The notes under the pieces are model-generated. The model worked only from the letters and a program-made list of their open reading frames with translations. It did not search any database and was not told where the DNA came from. A program made the position numbers and the translations under genes. From NCBI GenBank assembly GCA_017499595.2, contig CM039000.1:2046001-2110000 (forward strand): a stretch of DNA of 64,000 bases. The letters are read 5' to 3'. Each line of letters begins with the position of its first letter. Positions within the stretch are counted from its first letter, which is position 1. Shown piece by piece: positions 47,981 to 63,688 of the stretch. This stretch comes from Psilocybe cubensis. Lineage: Eukaryota.

Positions 47981-49046
47981 CGATATCATACCCATTTGTT
48001 TAATTATACCTCATTCGTGGTGAGTATATTTTTGGATATCTATTGCCAAGCGCTCACACACTTTGATTCTTGCGATTATGTCCATTGGTAGGCTTTCAGC
48101 CTCTATTTACCCCACCCATACGTCCACATACGTAGTCGTTGGAGCTCTTTCGTAGACCTAGTTTTTGATCTTATCATGACATACCCTTCCCAGAAACCTC
48201 ATTCTTCCGAAGCCATGCGTTTGCACCATTTATTTTGACGAAAATTTGACTATGTTACAAATACCCTCTTGTAATCACCATGCTCCCATTAATTTTGACT
48301 ATGCTTTTCATCTATGCTGCCCCTTGAGATATATCCAAGGGCATGGTGTGCAGCCTCCAGATGTTCTATTGAATCGATCCTGGACACCCTCATTTCTTTG
48401 ATGATAATACGATTTCATCGATTTAGCCAATGAATTTCCCCAGTATTATGTGTGGGTTACTGAAAATCTGATACAGGATATCGAGTCGCTGTATGTCGGA
48501 TTACCGAATACTACTTTCATTTTTCTGGCGGATATGTTGGGATTTATGATTTACACTGATTTATATATCTGTCATCAAACGAAAAATGGCAGATAAGAAA
48601 GGGATTATATACTTAGATGTTAGAACAACATAGCACTCCGGGCCCCTAACTATAATGATCTAATCTTATCTCTCTTCTTCTATCTAACATCATACCAAAC
48701 GTTGAGCAAACCAGGTTTACTTTCGGACGACAATTGCGATGAAACCTCCTGATTTGCCTGCTGGAAGTGTATACACCCAATATTACTGCGAGGAAAATGT
48801 GTACCTTCTGTCGCAGACATTCTTGGAAACACCAGTAGTGAGCGACTTCTGGGAAATTGTTGTAATTTTCATTTCGAATAATAACAAGACGGTGAGCAGA
48901 CACTCATACTGAAGTAGAACTAATTATCAAACATACATATTTGTAATTGACGACTCTACGATTAGGTTGCTCTTTGGTATCAAAAAGCTGCTGCTGATGA
49001 TAACAGACCTGTCGTTTGGGATTACCATGTCATCCTGGCGCTAAAG

Positions 49047-49345
49047 TGGAAGGCTGTCGGGATCGGCAGCCTCACTCGCTGAAACAGAAGGGACAACGCT
49101 CTCTTCGTTGCGTAGCGTTCTAGTCAATACATGATGTGTAGTAAATTACTATAATATATTTACCTTCGTTGCGTAGCGTTCTAGTCAAGCAACGAAGGTC
49201 ATTTGTTTCCCTTTTGTCTTTCGGTCTCAATATCTTTGTAAGTTGATTAGCGAGACCCAATCTGGGCTCGCGTTTGTGCGCCGTTTTGTTGTGCGCGTCC
49301 GCCTGCGGTGCGTGTTTGCGTGTGTGGTAAGTCTCCAGGCTTACA
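49047..49345 (-). repeat. 3' LTR (299 bp)
   Basis: Identical by eye to 54390-54688; begins TG and ends CA. Confidence 0.97.
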
Positions 49346-49359
49346 CCCCTCCCCCCTCT
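49346..49359 (-). other. Polypurine tract of the retrotransposon
   Basis: Minus-strand AGAGGGGGGAGGGG directly abutting the 3' LTR. Confidence 0.9.
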
Positions 49360-49397
49360 GAAGAATTCCATCGTGAAAGGGTCTGTTCTCTATGGCG

Positions 49398-52300
49398 TTA
49401 TTCGTCTTCTTTGTCCTCGGCCTCTTCCTCTTCCCATCTATCCAGTGCTTCATTCTCTTCAAGCATACGCCCTGGAAGCCACTCATCATGCTCCTTCCCA
49501 AATCCAGCCCATCGTACCAGATATTGCATCCCTCTACCACGTTTTCTCGCATCCACAATTTTCTCTATCACTGTCTCTTCCACCCCGTCCTCGGTTATCA
49601 CTGTTGGTGGTCGTACCAATTCTCTGTCCGGAAATTTCTCTGGATCATTCGGCACGAATGGTTTTAAAAGGCTGGCATGGAACCCCGGGAACGTCTTTGG
49701 GTTGTTTGGTAACCTCAGTGTATATTCTGATCGTTCGGGGAAGGCAGCCTCTACAACGTACGGTCCATCAAACCGTGGCATGAACTTTGCCACCCTTTTC
49801 TTCCCCTTCCGTTTGTAGTTGCGTCGCCGGTTCTTTGTAGAGAGCATTACCATATCGCCTGGTTGGTACACGATCTCGTTACCTCGCTGCTCATTTGCCT
49901 GAGCTGCTTGTCGGATCTTGGCTGTATGTAAGGCATCCTGCGCTTCCTTCACATCGATCTCAATTTTCCGAATGATCTCTCTTGCTGATGTTTCCACCAT
50001 TGGTGCATCCTTGTTTGCCTTTGCCATTGTAGGAATAATCCGTGGAGATCGACCTGTCTTCAGTTGGAAACCCGAGTATCCTGTCGATGCATTTACTGTG
50101 TTCATCATTGCGAACCGAATGCGAGGGAGCTTGTCTAACCAGCCTTTTTGGTTTCTATCCACATAGTATCGTATTGCTTGATTGACGGTTTTATTTGTTC
50201 TCTCGCTCGCTCCATCGGTTTCTGGATGATAGGCGGTCGACATCTTGATCTTTACATTCAAAATCTTGCATATTGCAGTCCATAGATCTGATGTAAAGAT
50301 TGTGTCGCGATCACAGATTAATTCTTCCATCAATCCATTTTCGCAAATCCAGTGGTCAACAACTTTGTGCGCAATTTGTTCTGTGGTCCATGAGGAGTGA
50401 GTTGCAATCAGTTGTATATCAGTACCTAAACGGCAAGTCATCGTGAGTATTGTGTCGCGTTCCTTCTCCTCGGGCAATGGTCCAATAAAGTCCAATGCAA
50501 CTGACGTGAGTCGTTTGTCTGGGACAGGAAGTGGGTGAAGTGGTCCTGTAGGTTTGGTTGTTCGGTCTTTGTTTCGCTGACATTCCGTGCACGAAGGAAT
50601 ATATGCCTTTTCGAGATCTCTTCGCATGTTAGGCCAGTAGTACGACCCGTGTAATGCTTCATACGATTTGTCAAATCCAAAATGACCCAAAACATCGTGA
50701 GCCAGATAATACAGTCGTTCTCGGATCTTCCTATCGTTTGGGATTACTAGTCTTTGTCCAAGATAAATCAGCCCTTCTTCTTCTCGTGCTCCTGTTAGAC
50801 TGTGCTTTTGCATTCCATCTCGAAATTGCTTAACAAACGGATCGGCATCATACCCATCCTTTATTGCCTGTACAAACTCCTGGTCAATTTCAATAGATAA
50901 CACTGATCCCACAAATCCTCTTGGGGCGCGATTAGGGTTCCGTGTATAGGCCAATGCACAGGCTGCAAATCTTGAATTTGGCTCTTCGTCCGGCATCCTT
51001 GATAGGGCATCTGCTGCTACATTTTCCTCCCCTCGGATGTAACATATCTCGAAATCGAAATCTGCCATGTACATCGACCATCTCATCTGCCGACGTGACA
51101 TCTCTTTCTGCGCCTGAAAATATTCCAATGTTCGGTGGTCAGTGTAGACTTCAAATTTGACCCCTAAAAGACTGCTGCGCCACTTTTTCAATGCTTTCAC
51201 AATTGCCAGGAGTTCTTTTTCGTGTGTTGGATAGTTCTTTTCTGCGTCTTTCAGCTGATATGAATCGTATGCAACTGGTCTTGCTGATTCCCAATCTTTT
51301 CCAAAACTCAAGACTGCACCTGTTCGCCTATCGCTTGCATCTGTTGTCACGTAGATCTTCCCTTCAGGGTCATCGTAATCAATGACAGTGAGGCATTCCG
51401 CCCCTGTAACCAGTTCCTTGATTGCGTTAAAGGCTCGATCATGATCGGCGGTCCATTTGGGGAAGTCGCGATCGCATTCTTTGCTTGTCAGTGGTGATAA
51501 GATGCTAGTATGTTCCGCGAGCGCAGGGAGAAAGACAGCCAGATATCTTGTGAGTCCTAGAAATCCACGTACATTTGTTGCGTTTGTTGGTCGTGGCCAT
51601 TTCTTGATTCGGTCTGTCTTTGCAGGGTCTGCGTGAATGCCGTTTGCGGAAATAACATGTCCCAGAAAGATAATTTCAGTTGCAAAAAGGACTGATTTCT
51701 TCGCATTACAATAAAGTCCCGCTTTCCGAAGCGCTTTCAAGACCTTTTCTACTCGTTCTGATAGTTGTTCCAAGGTGTCTGCCCAGATCACAATATCGTC
51801 TAGATAGACGTGACATACTTGTGCAATGAGTTCCCGTAATGCATCTGTCATTCGCCGTTGATGTGTAGCTGGCGCATTCTTCCCGCCCATTGGCATCACA
51901 ACCCATTCGTATAGGCCCCATGGTGTACGCACAGCTGTCAAGTGAATGTCGTCTGGGTGTACTCGTGTTTGGAAGAAACTGTTGGTCATGTCTAATTTTG
52001 CAAAGAATTTGCCTTTTCCACAGTCTGCAAGAATGTCATCTACTCGTGGAAGTGGAAATTTGTCAGATATAGTGTTCTTATTGATCTCCCGATAATCGTT
52101 TACCCATCGTGGTGGTACTGACAGGTCAGGTACTCCGTTTTTATACTTTGGAATGCAGAATGCTGGCGATGCATATTCAGATGAGGATGGTCGGATACGT
52201 CCCGCGGCCAGATGCTCGTCAAGAAGCTTCTTCCATGCATCGTGATATTTCTTTGGAGCAGCGTATCCTCGACCCGCATGTATCTTGTCTTTGTCCACCA

Positions 52301-54332
52301 ATCGTATCCGGTGATATATGTGATCAGGAATATCTACGTTGTCTGGTAGGCGGTCAGGAAAGCGATCTCGATATTTCTCTTTCATTTCTTTGTCCATGCG
52401 CAATAGCTTCTGCTGAAATTGAATGTTGCTGATTTGCTCATTAATCGCTGCTACCAACTGTTTTGCACGCTCTGGTTCGACCTGTGATCGCAGATGTTGT
52501 TCCTTTGCCATGGCCGATCTTCTCTGTTTGTCCTGATCTATCCCTGCGTCCGTCTTTAATCCCTCACAGATAGCAGTGCTCTTTGCAGCAAGAGTATCTC
52601 TTGTTGGTGGATTCATTAAATCATATCCAGAACGCTTATCAATAGCCGTTCGTTTCCGAGTATCAATGACTATATTTTCTGGGGAAAGAAATGACAATCC
52701 AAGTAGCAGCGGTATAGATAGGTTTTGATGAATCTTTGCTTTATGTGTCCGTGATATCCAGCTCCCGTTTCCTGATGCAACCCGAATCTTAACATACTCC
52801 CTGCATTCTAGCGGTGTATTGTCAATCGATGACAAATTGTCCTCGGCGGGTGGTAGTGGATATCGGGGGAGGCCGAGCTGGGTGACGAGTGTCTCGTCAA
52901 TCACTGTGGAAGGAGATCCCGTATCAAGCATTGGTCGAATGCGAAGAGGAAAATCCACAACCGCTGGCCCCTCAATCTCCATAACTGGAAAGAGGTGCGG
53001 AACGGTCATAGACATGGTAGGGACGTACGAATCAGAATCTGTCTCCTCGTCATGCACGGTATATGAGGAGGAAGCATTGATTTGCCCCACGGGCAAGGAC
53101 TTCCTAGTGCCCTGCTCTTTGGCATCCTTCTCACGTTGTGCCTTTAATGCCATCTCTTCTGTAAGGGTCTTGTATCCGTTTGCTGTTGGCCATCCATTTG
53201 GGCAGTTCCTTGCGCGGTGGTTGACGTAAAATCGACGGCATTTGGTACAGCCATTGTGATTGTCGAGTAATGTACGTTCTTCTGCTGTGATTTTAGGTAA
53301 CAGTGGCCTTCGCACCCCATTATCGAACTCGCTGTTTGATGGTCGAGGGTTGGGATTTGGACTATCCGAGAGACGCAATAACAAGGATTTCTTGTCAAGC
53401 CTGCGTGCAGCCACTCGTGTTGCGTAGCTCGCATCGATTTGACGTTGGGTGCGTGCACGTTCCTCACGAAGGCGGTCGTCACGGTCCTTTACTTCCAGTG
53501 ACCAGGCGGCTAATTCGGTGGCCTTGACTGGCTCGAATCCGAGCGACTCACGAAGCTCCTGGTTCAAGTGTGACTCGAGCTGTATCTTCAATGCTTCATT
53601 GGGGAAGGCGTACCCCTCTGGTGCCATCGTCTTCAAGATCGCATTCAAATTCTCCATTTCGATCTTCCAGTCGATGAAAATACGGTCGCCCTGATAGGAC
53701 GTTAGGATCTGTTCACGGACTTTGTGAGCCCACTTCTTCTCCAACACGAGCACTTGAAGCTCCTCCAGATATTTCTCCAGCGGCAGTTCATCAATCCGTG
53801 TGGAATCTGCTTGATACCAAGCCACCAGTCTTGGTTCTTGCATTCCATCGGCCACAAACTTCACAACTTCTTTTGGCGACTTCGCTGCATGCTTCATGTA
53901 TTTGCGGCAAGCAACCGCCCACTGCTGCATTACCAGAGGATCAATCTTCCCTGGTGTGAGAATCGGTACGTCCTTCATCTTATTTTGGACAACCGTAGCG
54001 AGCGGTTTATCGTCATCGTTTGGCATCTTGACTCTGACAACGGTGGGATACCTAGGGTTGCGGCGATTGCGTCGATCTCTGATCGGATTGCTGATCGCGG
54101 TGGGAGTGTGTGTGTCGGTATGGTCTTCGTCCTCTGAGTTAGAGGTCGCTGAATCTGAGAAGCTGAGATTCACTGATGAGGCAGACGGTGACGGCGGTGG
54201 ACCTTGGGGTTCAGTTCGTGGTTTGCGGAAAACAGTAAGGCCTGGAACAAGCTCTGAGGGTAATCCAAGCTCTTCTCGTCGTTGGGTCGACGCTCGAGTG
54301 GTCCGCGACGATTCGGTATACAGTGTGGGCAA
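49398..54332 (-). CDS. Gag-Pol polyprotein (single ORF; first ATG at 54026)
   Basis: Gag knuckle CTKC...H...C, protease LDTGS, RT YLDD, RNase H TDAS/EKELLAI, integrase HHCC + D,D,E + GPY, chromodomain IEKIVDAR...YLVRWAGFG.EHDEW. Confidence 0.97.
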   Translation of the reverse strand: MPTLYTESSRTTRASTQRREELGLPSELVPGLTVFRKPRTEPQGPPPSPSASSVNLSFSDSATSNSEDEDHTDTHTPTAISNPIRDRRNRRNPRYPTVVRVKMPNDDDKPLATVVQNKMKDVPILTPGKIDPLVMQQWAVACRKYMKHAAKSPKEVVKFVADGMQEPRLVAWYQADSTRIDELPLEKYLEELQVLVLEKKWAHKVREQILTSYQGDRIFIDWKIEMENLNAILKTMAPEGYAFPNEALKIQLESHLNQELRESLGFEPVKATELAAWSLEVKDRDDRLREERARTQRQIDASYATRVAARRLDKKSLLLRLSDSPNPNPRPSNSEFDNGVRRPLLPKITAEERTLLDNHNGCTKCRRFYVNHRARNCPNGWPTANGYKTLTEEMALKAQREKDAKEQGTRKSLPVGQINASSSYTVHDEETDSDSYVPTMSMTVPHLFPVMEIEGPAVVDFPLRIRPMLDTGSPSTVIDETLVTQLGLPRYPLPPAEDNLSSIDNTPLECREYVKIRVASGNGSWISRTHKAKIHQNLSIPLLLGLSFLSPENIVIDTRKRTAIDKRSGYDLMNPPTRDTLAAKSTAICEGLKTDAGIDQDKQRRSAMAKEQHLRSQVEPERAKQLVAAINEQISNIQFQQKLLRMDKEMKEKYRDRFPDRLPDNVDIPDHIYHRIRLVDKDKIHAGRGYAAPKKYHDAWKKLLDEHLAAGRIRPSSSEYASPAFCIPKYKNGVPDLSVPPRWVNDYREINKNTISDKFPLPRVDDILADCGKGKFFAKLDMTNSFFQTRVHPDDIHLTAVRTPWGLYEWVVMPMGGKNAPATHQRRMTDALRELIAQVCHVYLDDIVIWADTLEQLSERVEKVLKALRKAGLYCNAKKSVLFATEIIFLGHVISANGIHADPAKTDRIKKWPRPTNATNVRGFLGLTRYLAVFLPALAEHTSILSPLTSKECDRDFPKWTADHDRAFNAIKELVTGAECLTVIDYDDPEGKIYVTTDASDRRTGAVLSFGKDWESARPVAYDSYQLKDAEKNYPTHEKELLAIVKALKKWRSSLLGVKFEVYTDHRTLEYFQAQKEMSRRQMRWSMYMADFDFEICYIRGEENVAADALSRMPDEEPNSRFAACALAYTRNPNRAPRGFVGSVLSIEIDQEFVQAIKDGYDADPFVKQFRDGMQKHSLTGAREEEGLIYLGQRLVIPNDRKIRERLYYLAHDVLGHFGFDKSYEALHGSYYWPNMRRDLEKAYIPSCTECQRNKDRTTKPTGPLHPLPVPDKRLTSVALDFIGPLPEEKERDTILTMTCRLGTDIQLIATHSSWTTEQIAHKVVDHWICENGLMEELICDRDTIFTSDLWTAICKILNVKIKMSTAYHPETDGASERTNKTVNQAIRYYVDRNQKGWLDKLPRIRFAMMNTVNASTGYSGFQLKTGRSPRIIPTMAKANKDAPMVETSAREIIRKIEIDVKEAQDALHTAKIRQAAQANEQRGNEIVYQPGDMVMLSTKNRRRNYKRKGKKRVAKFMPRFDGPYVVEAAFPERSEYTLRLPNNPKTFPGFHASLLKPFVPNDPEKFPDRELVRPPTVITEDGVEETVIEKIVDARKRGRGMQYLVRWAGFGKEHDEWLPGRMLEENEALDRWEEEEAEDKEDE

Positions 54333-54389
54333 TTTACGGTAACGGTAACAGTGTGCGGCGGTGGTACGTAGTCGGCTTCAAAAAAAAAG

Positions 54390-54688
54390 TGGAAGGCTGT
54401 CGGGATCGGCAGCCTCACTCGCTGAAACAGAAGGGACAACGCTCTCTTCGTTGCGTAGCGTTCTAGTCAATACATGATGTGTAGTAAATTACTATAATAT
54501 ATTTACCTTCGTTGCGTAGCGTTCTAGTCAAGCAACGAAGGTCATTTGTTTCCCTTTTGTCTTTCGGTCTCAATATCTTTGTAAGTTGATTAGCGAGACC
54601 CAATCTGGGCTCGCGTTTGTGCGCCGTTTTGTTGTGCGCGTCCGCCTGCGGTGCGTGTTTGCGTGTGTGGTAAGTCTCCAGGCTTACA
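54390..54688 (-). repeat. 5' LTR (299 bp)
   Basis: Identical by eye to 49047-49345; upstream of gag on the minus strand. Confidence 0.97.
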
Positions 54689-55510
54689 TAAAGCCTAGGA
54701 AAAGACACATGGATTCACAAGGGATCGAGGCATCGAAGCTGCAGAGCTGGGTATACGATTTTGATACGACTTTACCACAGCCATGCAAATGGGAAGGCAA
54801 GCGAAACACGCCCGGTTTATCGTGTGAAATTGTATTAAACAGTTATGTTGAACCGATGTCCAGAATACCTAGACAAGACATTCCCTGAGGGACTATTGGC
54901 ATCCTATGAAAGGCGAGAGACGTTGTTTAATATCCAGATACCTCGTTTCTTATTTGCATGGTGCAGCATGTTCCGCATAATTCCTGCAGAGCAATTTTTC
55001 CAGAATTTTGCATCAGATCGGAGTCATATGGTGGGTATCTCAATCCCTGAGCTCATGTCAAGTCTGCTGAACGGCGCGACAAATAGCTTTTAAAGACCGC
55101 AGCAGAAAAGGGGTCGACCAGTTTAGATGATGGGGACACTCTTTACTCTGCTCCTCCGCCGCGTTATGCAGCAATATGTGGGTCGAGGGCAAGGCAAAAT
55201 GGAATCAGCAACAATTTGATGTCGCATTATGTGACGATGAAAATATGGGAGCAGGATTTATATGGAACTGTGGTGAATAGATCGGAAATTGACAAAGCCT
55301 TCCGCAATGGCCTCTTAGTAGTTACTTGAACATAGTTAAGTTGTAGCTTGTTGGATTGGACTTACTTGCCGAGCTAAGTGTCACGGTTGTAAAGAGTCAC
55401 GTGCTGTAGTGTGATGTTCGGAGGTGTTGGAGTTGGCAAAGAACGGTCGCGCTGTTCATCCATTGGCCACTCCCTTTTATCTCCTTCCACCGGTCCACAC
55501 CTCGACCAAC

Positions 55511-56966
55511 ATGACATCCATTCCTTCCACATCAACGTTTACAAATGGCCATTCGCACTCAAATGGATCAACCTCTCACAGTGAAATATCTGCAGAATCG
55601 TCGTTTGACGGGAATACCAGCTCACCCTCCTCGTCTGCTTACCCAACCAATGGCTATTCTCAGTGAGTTTCGACCACCCGTTAACAGGTTCAGAGGCGAA
55701 CACATCCGCACTCTGGACATCTGCGTAGGGTATCCTTACAGGACTATCAGAGCTCTCTTTGTAATTCTTTGCCTCCCCGACTGATCATTCCATTCTCAGG
55801 CCTCCCTTTCAAAACTCACATAACGAGGAAATTGTGAGCCATCTATATCATGCAGGATTTCAAACAGGTGTAAGTACTGCATTTCTATACATCTTTTATG
55901 TGTGTTAAGTTGTCTTCTCGCAGAATTACGCAGATACGATTCTTGTACGTTTTTGAGGATTCTGATGCCTTTTGCGGTGCCTAATATTAACACCCGCTTC
56001 AGCACGTTCACCAAAATGTGTACCGCCTTCATGCCATTATATTATCGCGGTCGCCATATCTTGCACATCTTATGTCTACTTCTCCACAAACCACTGGGCA
56101 ACGCATCATATATGTTCACTTAGATCAGGAACCAGAAGTCACACAAGAAGTAGGTATTCCTGTTGCTCTCTGTAAGAGATACATTGATCTAGATCTTTTA
56201 TTATTAGGGCTTTGCGATCGGTGATTACTTTCTCTCTCAGGCTTCTGCTTGTTTTCTCAATTCTGATCTTATGTTTGCAGCGCTGGGCTATCTTTACTCA
56301 GCAATATCTCTCAACCTCGTCCGTCCTGAGAACTCTCGAGCAGTTCTAGCAGCCGGTTGCTTACTAGGTGGCATGGATGAATTGTGCCAATACGCGTATA
56401 ACGTATGCAGGCAATCTATGTCGGTGGAGACCATCGGCAGCTGGGTTGAATTTATCGATACATTACCCTCAAACACAGATGGTGCAGCAGCTCCTGACCT
56501 CCCTTCTACATCAGTTTTTGGACGATATGCTCAAAGACTCAGAGATGATGTCTTCCATTTCCTCGTGGTTACACTTCCCGAAGTCCTTGAAGTTCAAAGG
56601 CCACCGCAGGATCCTTCTTCCGGAGCAAATGGACGTGATGTCCTTTTACAAATTTATTCGCGCGTGCCCTTCGAAATGTTCAAAACCGCCGTTGAATCAC
56701 CCACATTTTTGATTGGTTAGCATGGATCACCCCTGTAACCATTTTCGAAGCACTGACCTGAACTTTTTATATTATCAATAGGCTCCGACCAAGCTCGATT
56801 CAAGTTCGCAAAAGACGCCATTGAACTACGCAAGCGAGGGATTGCCCGGGGGCTTGGTGCTGAGGAAACCGTTGTTCTGGCCTTTGGGCAGAGCAACTTT
56901 GGTAACAGTGCTGTACATATCACGCGCAAAATGCGCAAGAGACCATTGTGGAAGGTGAACTCGTAG
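55511..56966 (+). CDS. BTB/POZ-domain protein of unknown function
   Basis: HIYHAGFQTG, YRLHAIILSRSPYLAHLMST, ALGYLYS, VLAAGCLLGGMDELC, SDQARFKFAK..IELRK...EETVVLAFG...RKRPLWKVNS*. Confidence 0.75.
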
Positions 56967-58436: not shown

Positions 58437-61400
58437 TTATGGGGCGTTGTTCATAGACCCCAACATATGTTCTAGACGCTCTTCCACTGTCCAATTGATA
58501 TCGTTGGTGGATAAAGACGACGAATTAGAGTGGCCTGGACCGCGATTTGGGATGATGTTGAATGATCCTGCGTCAGCGCCTTGCGAAAGGCTCTCGATTA
58601 GGCGGCCTATTTGTGCCGAGGAGCTGTAGAAAACCTGAGAATAGAGTGTGTTGAATATCGGTCAATAAGGTTTGATGAGAGCGAACACAAACATTGGTCT
58701 CAGGGCGATTTTTCCCTTGAGGTTTCTTTTTAGAAACAAAGGAAGATATGCTGCCCTTTGAACCTGATCGGGCATGCTCTTTCATGAATGCCTGCAAACC
58801 GTCATTTCCAGGTTCACGGGTGGAATATTCTGATGCAAAACTGGCACGACCGGAGTATATAGACTCGTCGTCGCCGTCGCGCAAACCATTCACGATGTTC
58901 CTAGTATTGTGTGAGAAACATTTTGAAACATTTTGCTTACGGGGAATACAATACTCACCATATAGTCTCTCCATTAGCCAACTGGATAATTTCTAGAGCA
59001 GGGCCGTCGGATGCGGCCAAATATTCACCCTTTGAGGCTGCTTGGTCGACCAATGAATTCGAATCATTGGGTGCTGCACTGGCCGCTCTAGATTCTCCGG
59101 CATACATGTCATACCTAACAACAGCCTTAAGTTTGAAGTTCACGATATAAGCAACGATTACTTACAAGGAGTCATATGTCGAGTTAGACTTCTCGATAGG
59201 GCCCGCTGCTGACGTAGATGGCGCATTCAACATTTTACCTGCTTGACCAACAAAGTTAGGCATCTGAGGTATCGGCGGCATGCCGTCAGCAGAGAAGCGC
59301 TTAATGGTCGGTGACTTCGGGGGAGGAGGCGTTGGTGCACGGTCGTGAACTGAACGGCTGGACACAGAGGTTGCGCTGGCACGTTTTTTACGCATAGATG
59401 TTTTTCGTTGTGTGAGAGCGCTCAACGCAGTAAAATCTGACGGTGATAAATCGGATGCAATTAGGATTGTCCTACGCACAATCGCATTTCCAGCATTCTC
59501 TGCCTGCCCTTCTTTCGGTCGCCGTAATTGATCGGTTCTTCGGGCAGAAGGCTTTCTTGTCACTGTAACATCCTCTGGGGTAGCAGGGCGAAGCTCGGAT
59601 TTGGAAGGTGGCTGGAGCTGCTGTTCTGGAGGAACAATATAACTCGTGGGTGTAGCTGTCTGATCTGACCCAGTACTACCCACATACGCGACCGGTTCGG
59701 CATCCACTTTGCTATCATTCTGACGAGTTGGTTGCGGCTTAGCAACGGAGTTGTTCCTTGCCAAAAGATTACGAGAGGAAGTAGACCCAGACCGGGCCAA
59801 CAGGGCATTTATGACATTCTCATCGAGACCTATATTACTTGCAGCAGCAAAGAATTGTTCCAAAGCAGCATCCGATAATTGAGTCGTCTCAGCCGGCGAT
59901 TTCATAGGCTCCTTTGTGTGTGTAGGCTGAGGTGGCGATGGAGCTACAGGGGGATTCGCAGGCGGAAACCTGGAATACATAGGACGAGGTTGACCCGCAG
60001 GCCTAGGAGTAGATGTGTGACTTCTATCAGTCGGAGACATCTGCTTGGGCGTGGTAGGTTCAACTTGACGAGGTGTGAGAGAAGATGTTGGACTGAGAGG
60101 TAAGCTTGTTCCGGGGAATGGGTTCTCTCCGCTAGAAGAATTCTCCGACATGCGTTGCTTGTTCCTAAACCTAGCCATGAATCCTTTCAAACCAGGTCCT
60201 GCAGAAGCAGGTGGGCTAGGTACTGGCACTTTGAATCGACCTGTTTCAGTAGCACTTGAAAGTTTAGGTGCGCCGGGAGGGTTGATTTTAGCAGGATCAT
60301 AAAAAGCTGTCTGGCTAGCCAACGGCGATTTAGAAGTATCAGGAGTAACAGTTTCCTCGCCAGATGAAGCAATATTTTTGGCACGCAGAGATCCTCGTAG
60401 TTTCTTGAACCGTGATCCAAGCTTGGATGCGCCAGGGCTGGATGTGTTGTTAGATAATAATGAAGGGGTACGGAGGGGTATCGTTTCGACACTGGTTGTA
60501 GTAGACAAGAGTTTTGGTGTGGATATCTGGCTTGTATCCACCTTTCTGCGAACAGAGGGCACCTGTTTCAAGCCGTCACCTAAATTAGTCCTTGACGGAT
60601 TTTTGTTGAGAGCCAACATAGCGGCATCGGTCTTTTCTTGGACGGCACGAGCAAGTTCTGCCTGTTCTTGAGGAGTTGGGGGTATCTTGGGTGTAGAAGG
60701 ATTGCGTAACAATAGATAGGGAGAATTAAATGAGGGTGATCGGATAGCATTTGGTTGGGTAGGAGAAACAGGAACAGATGTTGTCAGAGATGGAGATTCA
60801 GTGGTGACAGACTCTGAAGTGGAGATCGCAATAGGTGCAGGAGGAGAGAAGACGGGGTCTGGTTTCGGTTGTTCTGGAGCTGGACCTGCAGGTTCTTCTT
60901 CCTCTTTTCCATCTTCATCGTTACCAAAAAGAACATGCGCTAGATCACGATTACGTCGAGTATTGGGAGATACTTCTAGATCCTCGAGGGTGAGATTAGA
61001 AACAGCAGCGTTGACATTGACAGTCGGTGTAGAAGGTCGTTCATTAATGCTGTCAACCACAGAATTGAGCAGAGCGCTGGCTTTTGAAAGTTTATCATCG
61101 ACGACATAGGAAGGAGAGGCGGGAGTTTGCATCTGTGGAGGAGGACTCGCAACCTAAAAATTAAATAATGCATAAGAATATGACTTAATACTGAGAAAAA
61201 TAACTTACTCTATAATTGGATTGTGAGGTTGACGGCCGCCGCCGTCTCAACGCAGAAGGTGCACGATCTCGAGGGTCGGTATTCGCTATCTTGGCAAAAG
61301 CTGCAGCCACAAGTTTTTCCTGCACAGCTGCAATGTCCGCTTTCTTAAGGCCAGCATACCGCTCAATGATCTCTTCTGGGTCCCATTCATCGTCATCCAG

Positions 61401-63688
61401 AGAGCCCTGACCTGGCAGGATAGAGTTCAGTTCCTTATCCAAATCGTGCCACGCAATTGCTTGTTGATCTTTCGCGTCCGAAAATACACTAAAAACTTTG
61501 TCCGGTTCATCCCATGAATGGAAACTCGAGCCCACCGAATTGAGTGAAGACCGCGAAGAATTGGCACGAGGTGACAGCCCAAGAGAGGGAAAAGGGCCAA
61601 TATTGAAGGGAGATGAAGGGGGGTTTTGCCGAGAGGATCGCCTGCTGATATTGCGTGGTGAAAGATCGAAGCTGGAGAAGCTAGGAGAAATAGGAGACCG
61701 CTGAGCTGTTTGCGTCGGGGTGGCCGACCGTGGCACAAGTGTGGCACCCAGGATGGGTGAACCTAGCTCGACTTCGGGAATATAAGCCTGTGGTCGCTCA
61801 GCCGATATCATACTGCCATTCGACAGGATGTTATTCGCGAAATTAGATGAATATGACGCGGTTGGGTCAAGAGTGGGAGAGTCGGGAAACGCAGGAGACT
61901 TTAGAGAGCGAGGTCCCAACTGATGATGTCGATCAAAACGAAGATAATCTGAATCTAAAGCAGGTCCCTCTGTTGTCAAACTGTTATTCCGGCCGTGACC
62001 ACTGCGATTGTTCCTATGCCCGTTACTGCTGTTGACACTGGGTGTCCAGATTACGTTGGAAGGCGTTGTGGGCCGTGAAGGAGGTCGATTTGTGACTGCT
62101 GTCATCGGCTGATACGATGGGCCTGAGAGTGGCGATGCAGGTCTACGACGACCAAGAATAGATGAGTTCAACGGGCTATCAAATTCGACAGAATCACCGC
62201 CTGATGCACGCTGACTATCGTCTGGCGTATACCGTCCATTTGTACTTCTTTGAAGAAATAGTGGGGCAGCTGCCACAGGTGTAATAGGTGTAGATCTCGC
62301 TGTTACCGAGGATATTGATTCGCGCCTAACCTTACTTGAAGCACTATTAGATAGCGGGGATGATTCGGTATAGGGTGATTGCGCGCGAGGTGTAGTAGAA
62401 TGCGAACGTTGCTCGTCAAAGTCAAAGTCTCGAGGTGTCATGGGCCTGGGCATGCCTGGGATGTAGCCGGGAACAGTTCGAGCGGGTATAGGTGACTGCC
62501 TGCGTTCACTGAATTCAGAGTGTATAGTCTGGTCAATAGATATAGCCATTGCAGCTTCATATAGAGCACTGTTATTAGAAACCTGACTCTCCCGTTGCTG
62601 CGAAAAATTTTGTAAAATGGCATTCCACAACTAAAAAATATGGGAGAAACACGAACCACTTCAGCTGTAGGCTGGTCCAAACTACTACGCGGGACGGGGA
62701 CAGAACGGGGCAGCAAAATTTCATCTTCAACCTCGTCTTCAATCTCCTTGATGGCCTCCTCGAGCGCCATGGAGGCACGAAGTACAGACGGTCCTAGGGC
62801 TTTTTGCAGACGATACTCAGCAACGGAAATCGGCGCATTGTCGCCAAATGGAGCCGGAGGGATGTGAGGGGCGCTATGAACAAGGCCATCCTCGTTTGGA
62901 CTTGGACTGGACTGGACTGAAGAAGGAATACTGTTTTCAGGGGTGACAGGTCGTATGCTGGTGTTAGATGCTTCTCTTGCCGACGTTGACACCTCTGTAG
63001 GAGTTAATGAAAGGGCGCGAGTGCTATTAATTGAGGCCTTGGAGGAGGCGACGCTCTTCAAATAGTTGTAGTCTCGTAGGCGCCCTGAGCCGAAGAGGTT
63101 GTTGCTGTATCGTTTTGAACGTGAGTTAGGGGATGATGTAACGCTAGAAGATGTAGCTGTTGAACGTATTGATGTCCTTGTGACAGTCGTTGAGTCGTCA
63201 GTTTCAGCGACGTGCTCCTGGGAGGCGGCAGGCGAGGGTGTCTTCGTCGACCGCAATTTGCCCAAAGTCTCAAGCAACATATCCTCCTCTTCCTCAGTAA
63301 TTTGATTCTGTGCACCACGAGCTCGCTGGTTTGCTAGCCTAGTCCTGAGGTGTTCTAACGACACGGGATCGCCTGTGGACGAACGGAGGAGGGAGAATCG
63401 ACGAGATAGGCTGGTGTGTGTTGAAGCGAAAGAGCCAAGTGGAGTCGGTTAGTTTACGTTACAGCAGCAGGGCCGACACTCACTCAGGCAAGATAAGCGA
63501 CGTGCGAAAATCGTTGGCGGAAGGCAGCTCTGGAAGTATATTTTGCGCGTCCTTTTCGTGCGTGTGCTGGAGATCGGGGACTTGACTGCGTTTCGCGTCA
63601 GACCGCTTCCTGTAACGGACAGATGGCCTGAATGAGACGGACGGTGCGATGCGCGCCGAATGATACAGACTTACCGAAAACGATTCAT
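58437..63688 (-). CDS. Large Ser/Pro-rich, mostly disordered hypothetical protein
   Basis: Spliced MNRFR|KRSD...DFRTSLILP|DLSRRFSLLR, long exons 62438-63364, 61185-62630 and 59162-61132, C-terminal block ALEIIQLANGETIW|NIVNGLR...RPETN|VFYSS...VEERLEHML*. Confidence 0.8.

Follow-up and report, generated by a model that had tools for sequence, protein, structure and literature searches.

The subject of this analysis is a 64,000-nucleotide (64-kb) stretch of Psilocybe cubensis DNA (assembly GCA_017499595.2, contig CM039000.1, positions 2,046,001 to 2,110,000 of the forward strand), called the window below and numbered from its first letter. Within it, a plus-strand gene for the N-terminal glutamine amidase NTAQ1 (Pfam PF09764, Nt_Gln_amidase), with its start ATG at 48739 and its stop TGA at 55327 to 55329, is interrupted by a complete long terminal repeat (LTR) retrotransposon, a Ty3/gypsy chromovirus of 5,642 bp that occupies positions 49047 to 54688 and runs antisense to the gene. 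Exon 2 is broken straight after VVWDYHVILALK (...WDYHVILALK) at 49046, and a copy of TAAAG stands on each side of the element. The host gene and its limits (48739 to 55329), the chromoviral nature of the element, its point of entry, and the duplication had all been proposed in an initial annotation made from the sequence alone, and each of these proposals held under the analysis described here; the antisense orientation is a detail that it did not contain. The coordinates of the individual features are collected in Table 1.

The host gene and the inserted element

The assignment to NTAQ1 is supported by the five coding pieces of the gene, which match collinear segments of the 184-position PF09764 profile (Table 1), three of the five being individually above the family cut-off of 27 bits. 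An exhaustive protein search with exon 1 retrieved 180 matches at an E value of ≤0.001, and word-indexed searches restricted to longer proteins, in which exon 1 and the last exon served as queries, returned no match at the same threshold. Gene models were compared by alignment with 17 full-length homologues and by scoring on a profile of 13 of them (fungal, 215 positions); the five of these 13 that were scanned all matched PF09764, with E values from 1e-51 to 2e-57. With the element and one TAAAG omitted, the best model has five exons, encodes 233 amino acids, and reaches 278.0 bits over profile positions 3 to 210 in a single stretch. The spliced element-free frame contains no internal stop in any of the four intron models, and the homologue alignment shows that all the family motifs (YCEEN, FISN, WDYHV, YDFD, FASDRSHM, PPP.Y, and NNLM) have been kept, in agreement with the previous claim that removal of the element restores an intact reading frame with no other lesion visible.

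Judging from profile scores and homologue alignment, the gene appears to contain a GC-AG intron 2 as well as a very short, in-frame intron 3 of 45 nt. Models in which intron 2 starts from a GT donor at 54815 were rejected, as they scored 259.0 to 266.5 bits compared to 270.2 to 278.0 bits for the GC donor. Retention of intron 3 was also discarded (270.2 bits versus 278.0 when it is spliced out), and the 15 residues encoded by 54922 to 54966 are missing from 16 of the 17 aligned homologues.

Alignment to human NTAQ1 (WDYHV1, C8orf32; PDB 4W79 and 3C9Q) equates Cys17, His72, and Asp100 of the fungal protein with C28, H81, and D97. In PMC4214742, Cys28, His81, and Asp97 are given as the catalytic triad of the human enzyme, and the mouse mutants C30A and H83A are described as having lost almost all activity. 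The human, mouse, and fungal proteins belong to the same PF09764 family, and their alignment matches the triad and the motifs YCEEN, WDYHV, and YD.D position by position. The fungal orthologue, a predicted enzyme, differs from the mammalian ones in its length of 233 amino acids, with a longer loop behind WDYHV, and in the interruption of its gene, which leaves only residues 1 to 78 plus 11 foreign residues as a possible product. A literature search on the N-terminal glutamine amidase or NTAQ1 in fungi found no study of a fungal enzyme, judging by titles and abstracts.

The insertion separates the codons for His72 and Asp100 by 5.6 kb of element, with Cys and His to the left and Asp to the right, so that the catalytic residues are divided in the way the initial annotation had described; in this allele, the triad residues cannot share one polypeptide. 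The read-through into the LTR that it had also predicted (WKAVGIGSLTR followed by a stop) was reproduced, and the resulting product of 89 amino acids keeps profile positions 3 to 83 of 215. The same product had been called independently in public annotation. The top match of the exhaustive search, UniRef100_A0A8H7Y5B1 (P0001 in Table 1), is letter-identical to our 89-residue translation (100% identity), forms a cluster of one, and is named [quoted passage not shown] without any sign in the record of its transposon-disrupted origin. This entry is the product of a disrupted allele and not the normal protein of the species, and comparative studies that rely on it will be led astray.

The two LTRs of the element, 299 bp each, have TG...CA ends and are 100% identical. 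A 35-nt pattern taken from the LTR start occurs twice in the 64-kb window, versus zero occurrences expected (100 shuffles). Between the LTRs, a single frame of 1,644 amino acids contains RVT_1 (residues 745 to 894), RT_RNaseH (988 to 1092), Integrase_H2C2 (1200 to 1256), SH3_Tf2-1, and a C-terminal chromodomain (PF00385, Chromo, residues 1588 to 1635, 34.7 bits versus a cut-off of 25.1), all above their Pfam cut-offs, along with weak matches to Asp_protease_2 (465 to 547, E value of 0.007) and rve (1292 to 1370, E value of 0.062). The motifs LDTGS (protease), YLDD (reverse transcriptase), and D..D(35)E could be read from the translation, and the domains follow the order protease-reverse transcriptase-RNase H-integrase. 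The presence of these domains in the gag-pol frame together with the C-terminal chromodomain makes the label chromovirus correct. The identical LTRs, the perfect 5-bp duplication, the polypurine tract beside the 3′ LTR, and the open gag-pol frame are the features of a genuine integration.

Examples of fungal Ty3/gypsy chromoviruses are Tf1/Tf2 of fission yeast and MAGGY. The element shares with this group the TG...CA LTRs, the 5-bp target duplication, the single gag-pol frame with the domain order given above, the Tf2-type SH3 domain, and the C-terminal chromodomain, and it differs in having no recognizable primer-binding site. Adjoining the 5′ LTR (54360 to 54389, minus strand), a C and nine T (CTTTTTTTTTG) are followed by GAAGCCGACTACG, and a search beside this LTR revealed neither a TGG-type site nor a self-priming complement of at least 8 nt to the LTR. 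The 64-kb window contains no tRNA genes and hence none that could be compared with the primer-binding region. A literature search combining Psilocybe cubensis and retrotransposon retrieved nothing on this element, judging by titles and abstracts.

Table 1. Features of the interrupted NTAQ1 gene and of the inserted chromovirus, in window coordinates
Feature	Position	Strand	Description
NTAQ1 exon 1	48739..48891	+	51 aa, YCEEN with catalytic Cys17; PF09764 1-39, E 3.3e-8; aligns to human NTAQ1 20-60
NTAQ1 intron 1	48892..48965	+	74 nt, GTGAGC...TAG; also present in P0001, the public gene call of 89 aa
NTAQ1 exon 2, left part	48966..49046	+	27 aa, ends VVWDYHVILALK; catalytic His72; PF09764 40-64; human 63-84
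Target-site duplication TAAAG, left copy	49042..49046	.	Single TAAAG at the empty sites of three public DNA runs (X5, X9, X14)
Host-frame read-through into LTR	49047..49082	+	WKAVGIGSLTR (11 codons), then TGA; same as C terminus of P0001
LTR (3′ LTR in the element's own sense)	49047..49345	-	299 bp
Polypurine tract	49346..49359	-	Sense strand AGAGGGGGGAGGGG; adjoins 3′ LTR; putative role, from its position
gag-pol ORF	49398..54332	-	Single open frame, 1,644 aa: Zn knuckle, protease, reverse transcriptase, RNase H, integrase, chromodomain
125-nt intron in element RNA	52904..53028	-	Sense GTACGT...CACAG; one contig of RNA run X10
LTR (5′ LTR in the element's own sense)	54390..54688	-	299 bp
Target-site duplication TAAAG, right copy	54689..54693	.	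Adjoins the right end of the element
NTAQ1 exon 2, right part	54694..54796	+	PRKRH...WVYDFDTTLPQPCKWE; catalytic Asp100; PF09764 70-91; human 90-108
NTAQ1 intron 2	54797..54863	+	67 nt, GC-AG (AAG|GCAAGC...TCCAG); homologue alignment and profile score
NTAQ1 exon 3	54864..54921	+	Homologue alignment and profile score
Probable NTAQ1 intron 3	54922..54966	+	45 nt, in frame, stop-free if retained; homologue comparison only
NTAQ1 exon 4	54967..55030	+	Ends FRIIPAEQFFQNFASDRSHM; PF09764 109-131; homologue alignment
NTAQ1 intron 4	55031..55086	+	56 nt, GTGGGT...ATAG
NTAQ1 exon 5 and stop TGA	55087..55329	+	PF09764 133-183

Empty sites and mobility of the element among strains

Of 15 listed public runs matching the left flank and the LTR, four were aligned to positions 49346 to 55700, a region that takes in the interior of the element together with one LTR and the flank on the right. 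Three of them are DNA runs from two studies, X5 and X9 (contig sets) and X14 (raw reads), and the fourth, X10, is an RNA run. The exact empty site was present in all three DNA runs, within a 64,847-bp contig in X5, a 75,440-bp contig in X9, and 20 raw reads in X14. These sequences align to the window from 54689 (TAAAG CCTAGG) rightwards and continue leftwards as TCGTTTGGGATTACCATGTCATCCTGGCGC, 30 letters identical to 49012 to 49041 that have this single match in the window, directly before the left TAAAG. The junction CTGGCGC-TAAAG-CCTAGG, which the initial annotation had predicted and set as a check, was found in each of the three runs.

Since the empty site is found, in its exact form, in other strains labelled as this species, the interrupted allele is young and strain-specific, as had been suspected from the sequence. 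A recent event is also consistent with the identical LTRs and the open frame of 1,644 amino acids. It fits, too, with the part of the gene to the right of the element, where 1,012 bases (54689 to 55700) show no difference from the allele in X9 and hence no sign of decay since the insertion. The identity of the LTRs was not adopted as a clock, as zero differences in 299 bp bound the age only loosely (at fungal substitution rates, to hundreds of thousands to millions of years), and the polymorphism among strains is a better sign of youth. The share of sampled words found in the runs (0.97 for X1 to X4, 0.95 for X5 and X6, and 0.71 to 0.79 for X7 to X9) was likewise rejected as a proxy for the junction because it is too coarse.

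The location of the element varies among the runs. X9 is devoid of it, with a depth of 0 over 49346 to 54688. In X5, a copy with five base differences is found at another locus, bordered by a 5-bp duplication of its own (TCTAC), which indicates that such a duplication is the way in which this element integrates; the depth of the element in this run is 42.9, versus 86 for the NTAQ1 flank. In X14, it is present beside yet other flanks. None of six strings, made up of the element flanks from X5 and X14 and the inverted-repeat ends from X14 described below, was found in the window. The pattern of different loci in X5 and X14 and absence in X9 fits a low-copy element that is still moving. Taken together with the identical LTRs, the open frame, and the matching RNA contigs (see below), these shifting sites suggest that this autonomous chromovirus is probably active now. 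To our knowledge, active LTR retrotransposons that make tractable cases are uncommon in the Agaricomycetes.

All three DNA runs compared show only the empty site, and the word shares of 0.97 in X1 to X4 are no proof that junction words are present, which might lead one to suspect an assembly artefact in which the element was mis-joined into the NTAQ1 locus of a strain that really has the empty site. However, a chimeric join would not give a complete TG...CA element together with a perfect duplication of a TAAAG that is otherwise single, and the X5 copy, with its own duplication at another locus, behaves in the same manner. We regard such an artefact as highly improbable.

X14 carries two haplotypes, since heterozygosity at about 60% is seen at three positions of the last NTAQ1 exon, and its 20 empty-site reads, at a flank depth of about 22 to 32, fit with both haplotypes being empty. 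In the same run, about half of the reads break at 55375 to 55377 (14 and 20 reads), 46 bp behind the NTAQ1 stop. The loose ends are exact mutual reverse complements over 30 nt, with a 3-bp overlap (TAA) between the aligned parts. Such a pattern resembles the insertion of an inverted-repeat DNA transposon or miniature inverted-repeat transposable element (MITE) in one haplotype, and the window lacks it.

Four single-base differences among strains were detected in the last NTAQ1 exon (55153, 55208, 55268, and 55298), and all of them are non-synonymous (P>S, S>T, T>I, and A>V). This lack of silent changes, along with the second transposon-like polymorphism 46 bp behind the stop in X14, could be taken to mean that NTAQ1 was already dispensable or decaying in the species and that the insertion had no consequence. 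However, the four substitutions fall at positions that are also variable among homologues and are too few to judge, the frame is open with every family motif kept, and an end-to-end profile fit of 278 bits is unlike that of a decaying gene. Prior decay of NTAQ1 is, in our view, unlikely.

Predicted consequences for NTAQ1

We consider it very likely that the antisense integration of the chromovirus into exon 2 of NTAQ1 represents a recent, strain-specific allele with a truncated product and a predicted null character. The integration of the Ty3/gypsy chromovirus generated the 5-bp TAAAG duplication, and the host frame continues for 11 codons into the LTR before reaching a stop. The allele would encode only the 89-residue fragment, which amounts to about a third of the fold and contains Cys and His without Asp, the C-terminal two thirds being missing. 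It is the absence of Asp and of two thirds of the fold that leads us to predict a null allele. In addition, since the stop lies far upstream of three further introns, the disrupted transcript is a likely target of nonsense-mediated decay. Within the Arg/N-degron pathway, NTAQ1 initiates the Gln branch, by which proteins that begin with glutamine are readied for degradation. In a nucleus with this allele, the conversion of N-terminal Gln to Glu by NTAQ1 would cease, and only a different amidase or the second nucleus could then preserve the Gln branch.

Several points weigh against this reading. The loss of function is a prediction from the sequence, and the insertion itself is known from an assembled sequence, the comparison of its junction in reads or contigs having covered X5, X9, and X14. 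The loss could be masked by a further copy of NTAQ1 or by an amidase of the Nta1 type, and an intact allele may reside in the other nucleus of a dikaryon. Finally, there are 28 GT...AG pairs, all in frame and without a stop, by which the element might theoretically be spliced out, 13 of them preserving WDYH and YDFD.

The last of these points would make the allele non-null, as cryptic GT/AG sites at or near the duplicated TAAAG would allow the whole element to be spliced from the pre-mRNA like an intron of 5.65 kb, and Cys, His, and Asp would be restored in frame. In one such combination (donor 49046, acceptor 54698), the protein would lose no more than Pro-Arg, in a loop of variable length among homologues. 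However, the candidate donors (GTGGAA and GTCGGG) are poor compared to the gene's own (GTGAGC, GCAAGC, and GTGGGT), and the four NTAQ1 introns, with 45 to 74 nt, are about 100 times shorter. Restoration of the enzyme by splicing thus seems barely credible.

Masking of a true null at the level of the phenotype is a much more serious possibility, which we would place somewhat below even chances. The allele would then be hemizygous in a dikaryon, or its loss would be covered by a yeast-type Nta1 or by a second PF09764 gene; the yeast Nta1 deamidates Asn as well as Gln. The three heterozygous NTAQ1 sites at about 60% in X14 show that two-haplotype strains occur, and the half depth of the element in X5 (42.9 versus 86) is what would be found for an insertion in one of two haplotypes.

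The truncated, predicted null allele that we favor is a known kind of event and, as such, of modest interest, exonic transposon insertions being a textbook source of null alleles. As in the classical cases, the product is cut short by an insertion into an exon, and the allele is polymorphic, with a precise empty site; there is no difference in kind. What is particular here is the target, an amidase of the N-degron pathway, and the cleanness of the event, with no other lesion in the gene and an intact element. If the reading is correct, the natural pair of insertion and empty-site strains would permit the first test of the Gln branch of the Arg/N-degron pathway in a mushroom-forming fungus. These findings overturn nothing, and their value lies in a clean natural knockout, a misleading public annotation, and a possible splicing strategy of the element.

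Element RNA and genomic surroundings

The evidence for this splicing comes from X10, which can be identified as RNA because its contig over the gene just downstream from NTAQ1 lacks the GT-AG intron at 55663 to 55799. Contigs identical to the element were found in this run, covering the gag region only. In one of them, a 125-nt intron is missing (52904 to 53028; Table 1), and the joint is covered at a depth of 12.4, with 114 letters on its shorter side and no mismatches; the splicing evidence for the element consists of this single contig of a single run. The same joint was not found in X5 and X14, the DNA runs that contain the element. The intron spans the protease active site, and its removal produces a Gag-only frame of 436 amino acids with a stop one codon past the joint. 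Beyond the joint, the spliced contig extends for 114 nt.

This arrangement is reminiscent of the shGAG RNA of Ty1/copia elements, described for EVD and other Arabidopsis copia elements in PMC5580714, where the RNA of a single-ORF element is also spliced just behind gag and the splice shifts the frame to a stop. The restriction of the X10 contigs to gag and the end of the spliced one soon after the joint resemble the premature termination reported in PMC5580714. The element described here, in contrast, is a Ty3/gypsy chromovirus from a fungus, whereas those are copia elements of plants, and its Gag-only product is a predicted one. As far as the portions of the literature searched extend, a spliced Gag-only strategy is documented for Ty1/copia and was not found for fungal Ty3/gypsy elements, and no spliced fungal chromovirus appeared among the titles listed in a search on spliced gag in chromoviruses. 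BARE is reportedly a further Ty1/copia element with an shGAG-type subgenomic RNA. Only tentatively, and with more doubt than confidence, we propose that a near single-copy, currently transposing fungal chromovirus balances Gag versus Pol by splicing of the 125-nt intron and that, in one lineage of Psilocybe cubensis, its newest jump turned NTAQ1 into a clean null.

X10 has no contigs over the right part of NTAQ1, a gap that is uninformative on the expression of this gene. The gene just downstream (about 55475 to 55830, with an ATG near 55511) is strong in this run, with a contig depth of about 280, and the intron spliced out at 55663 to 55799 is its first. Farther to the right, three long open frames on the minus strand (663, 481, and 336 amino acids) are found at 59165 to 63448, with no Pfam match at an E value of ≤0.001. 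No transposon-like ORF was found among the 17 tested elsewhere in the window, whose long ORFs include those for a ribosomal protein L7/L30, a proteasomal ATPase, PPP4R2, a TFIIB-like factor, and ATP12. As the surrounding ORFs tested are housekeeping genes, the element landed in gene-dense DNA. Chromodomains are held to direct integration toward heterochromatin, and the location of this element inside an exon and amid housekeeping genes is a further difference from the fungal Ty3/gypsy chromoviruses.

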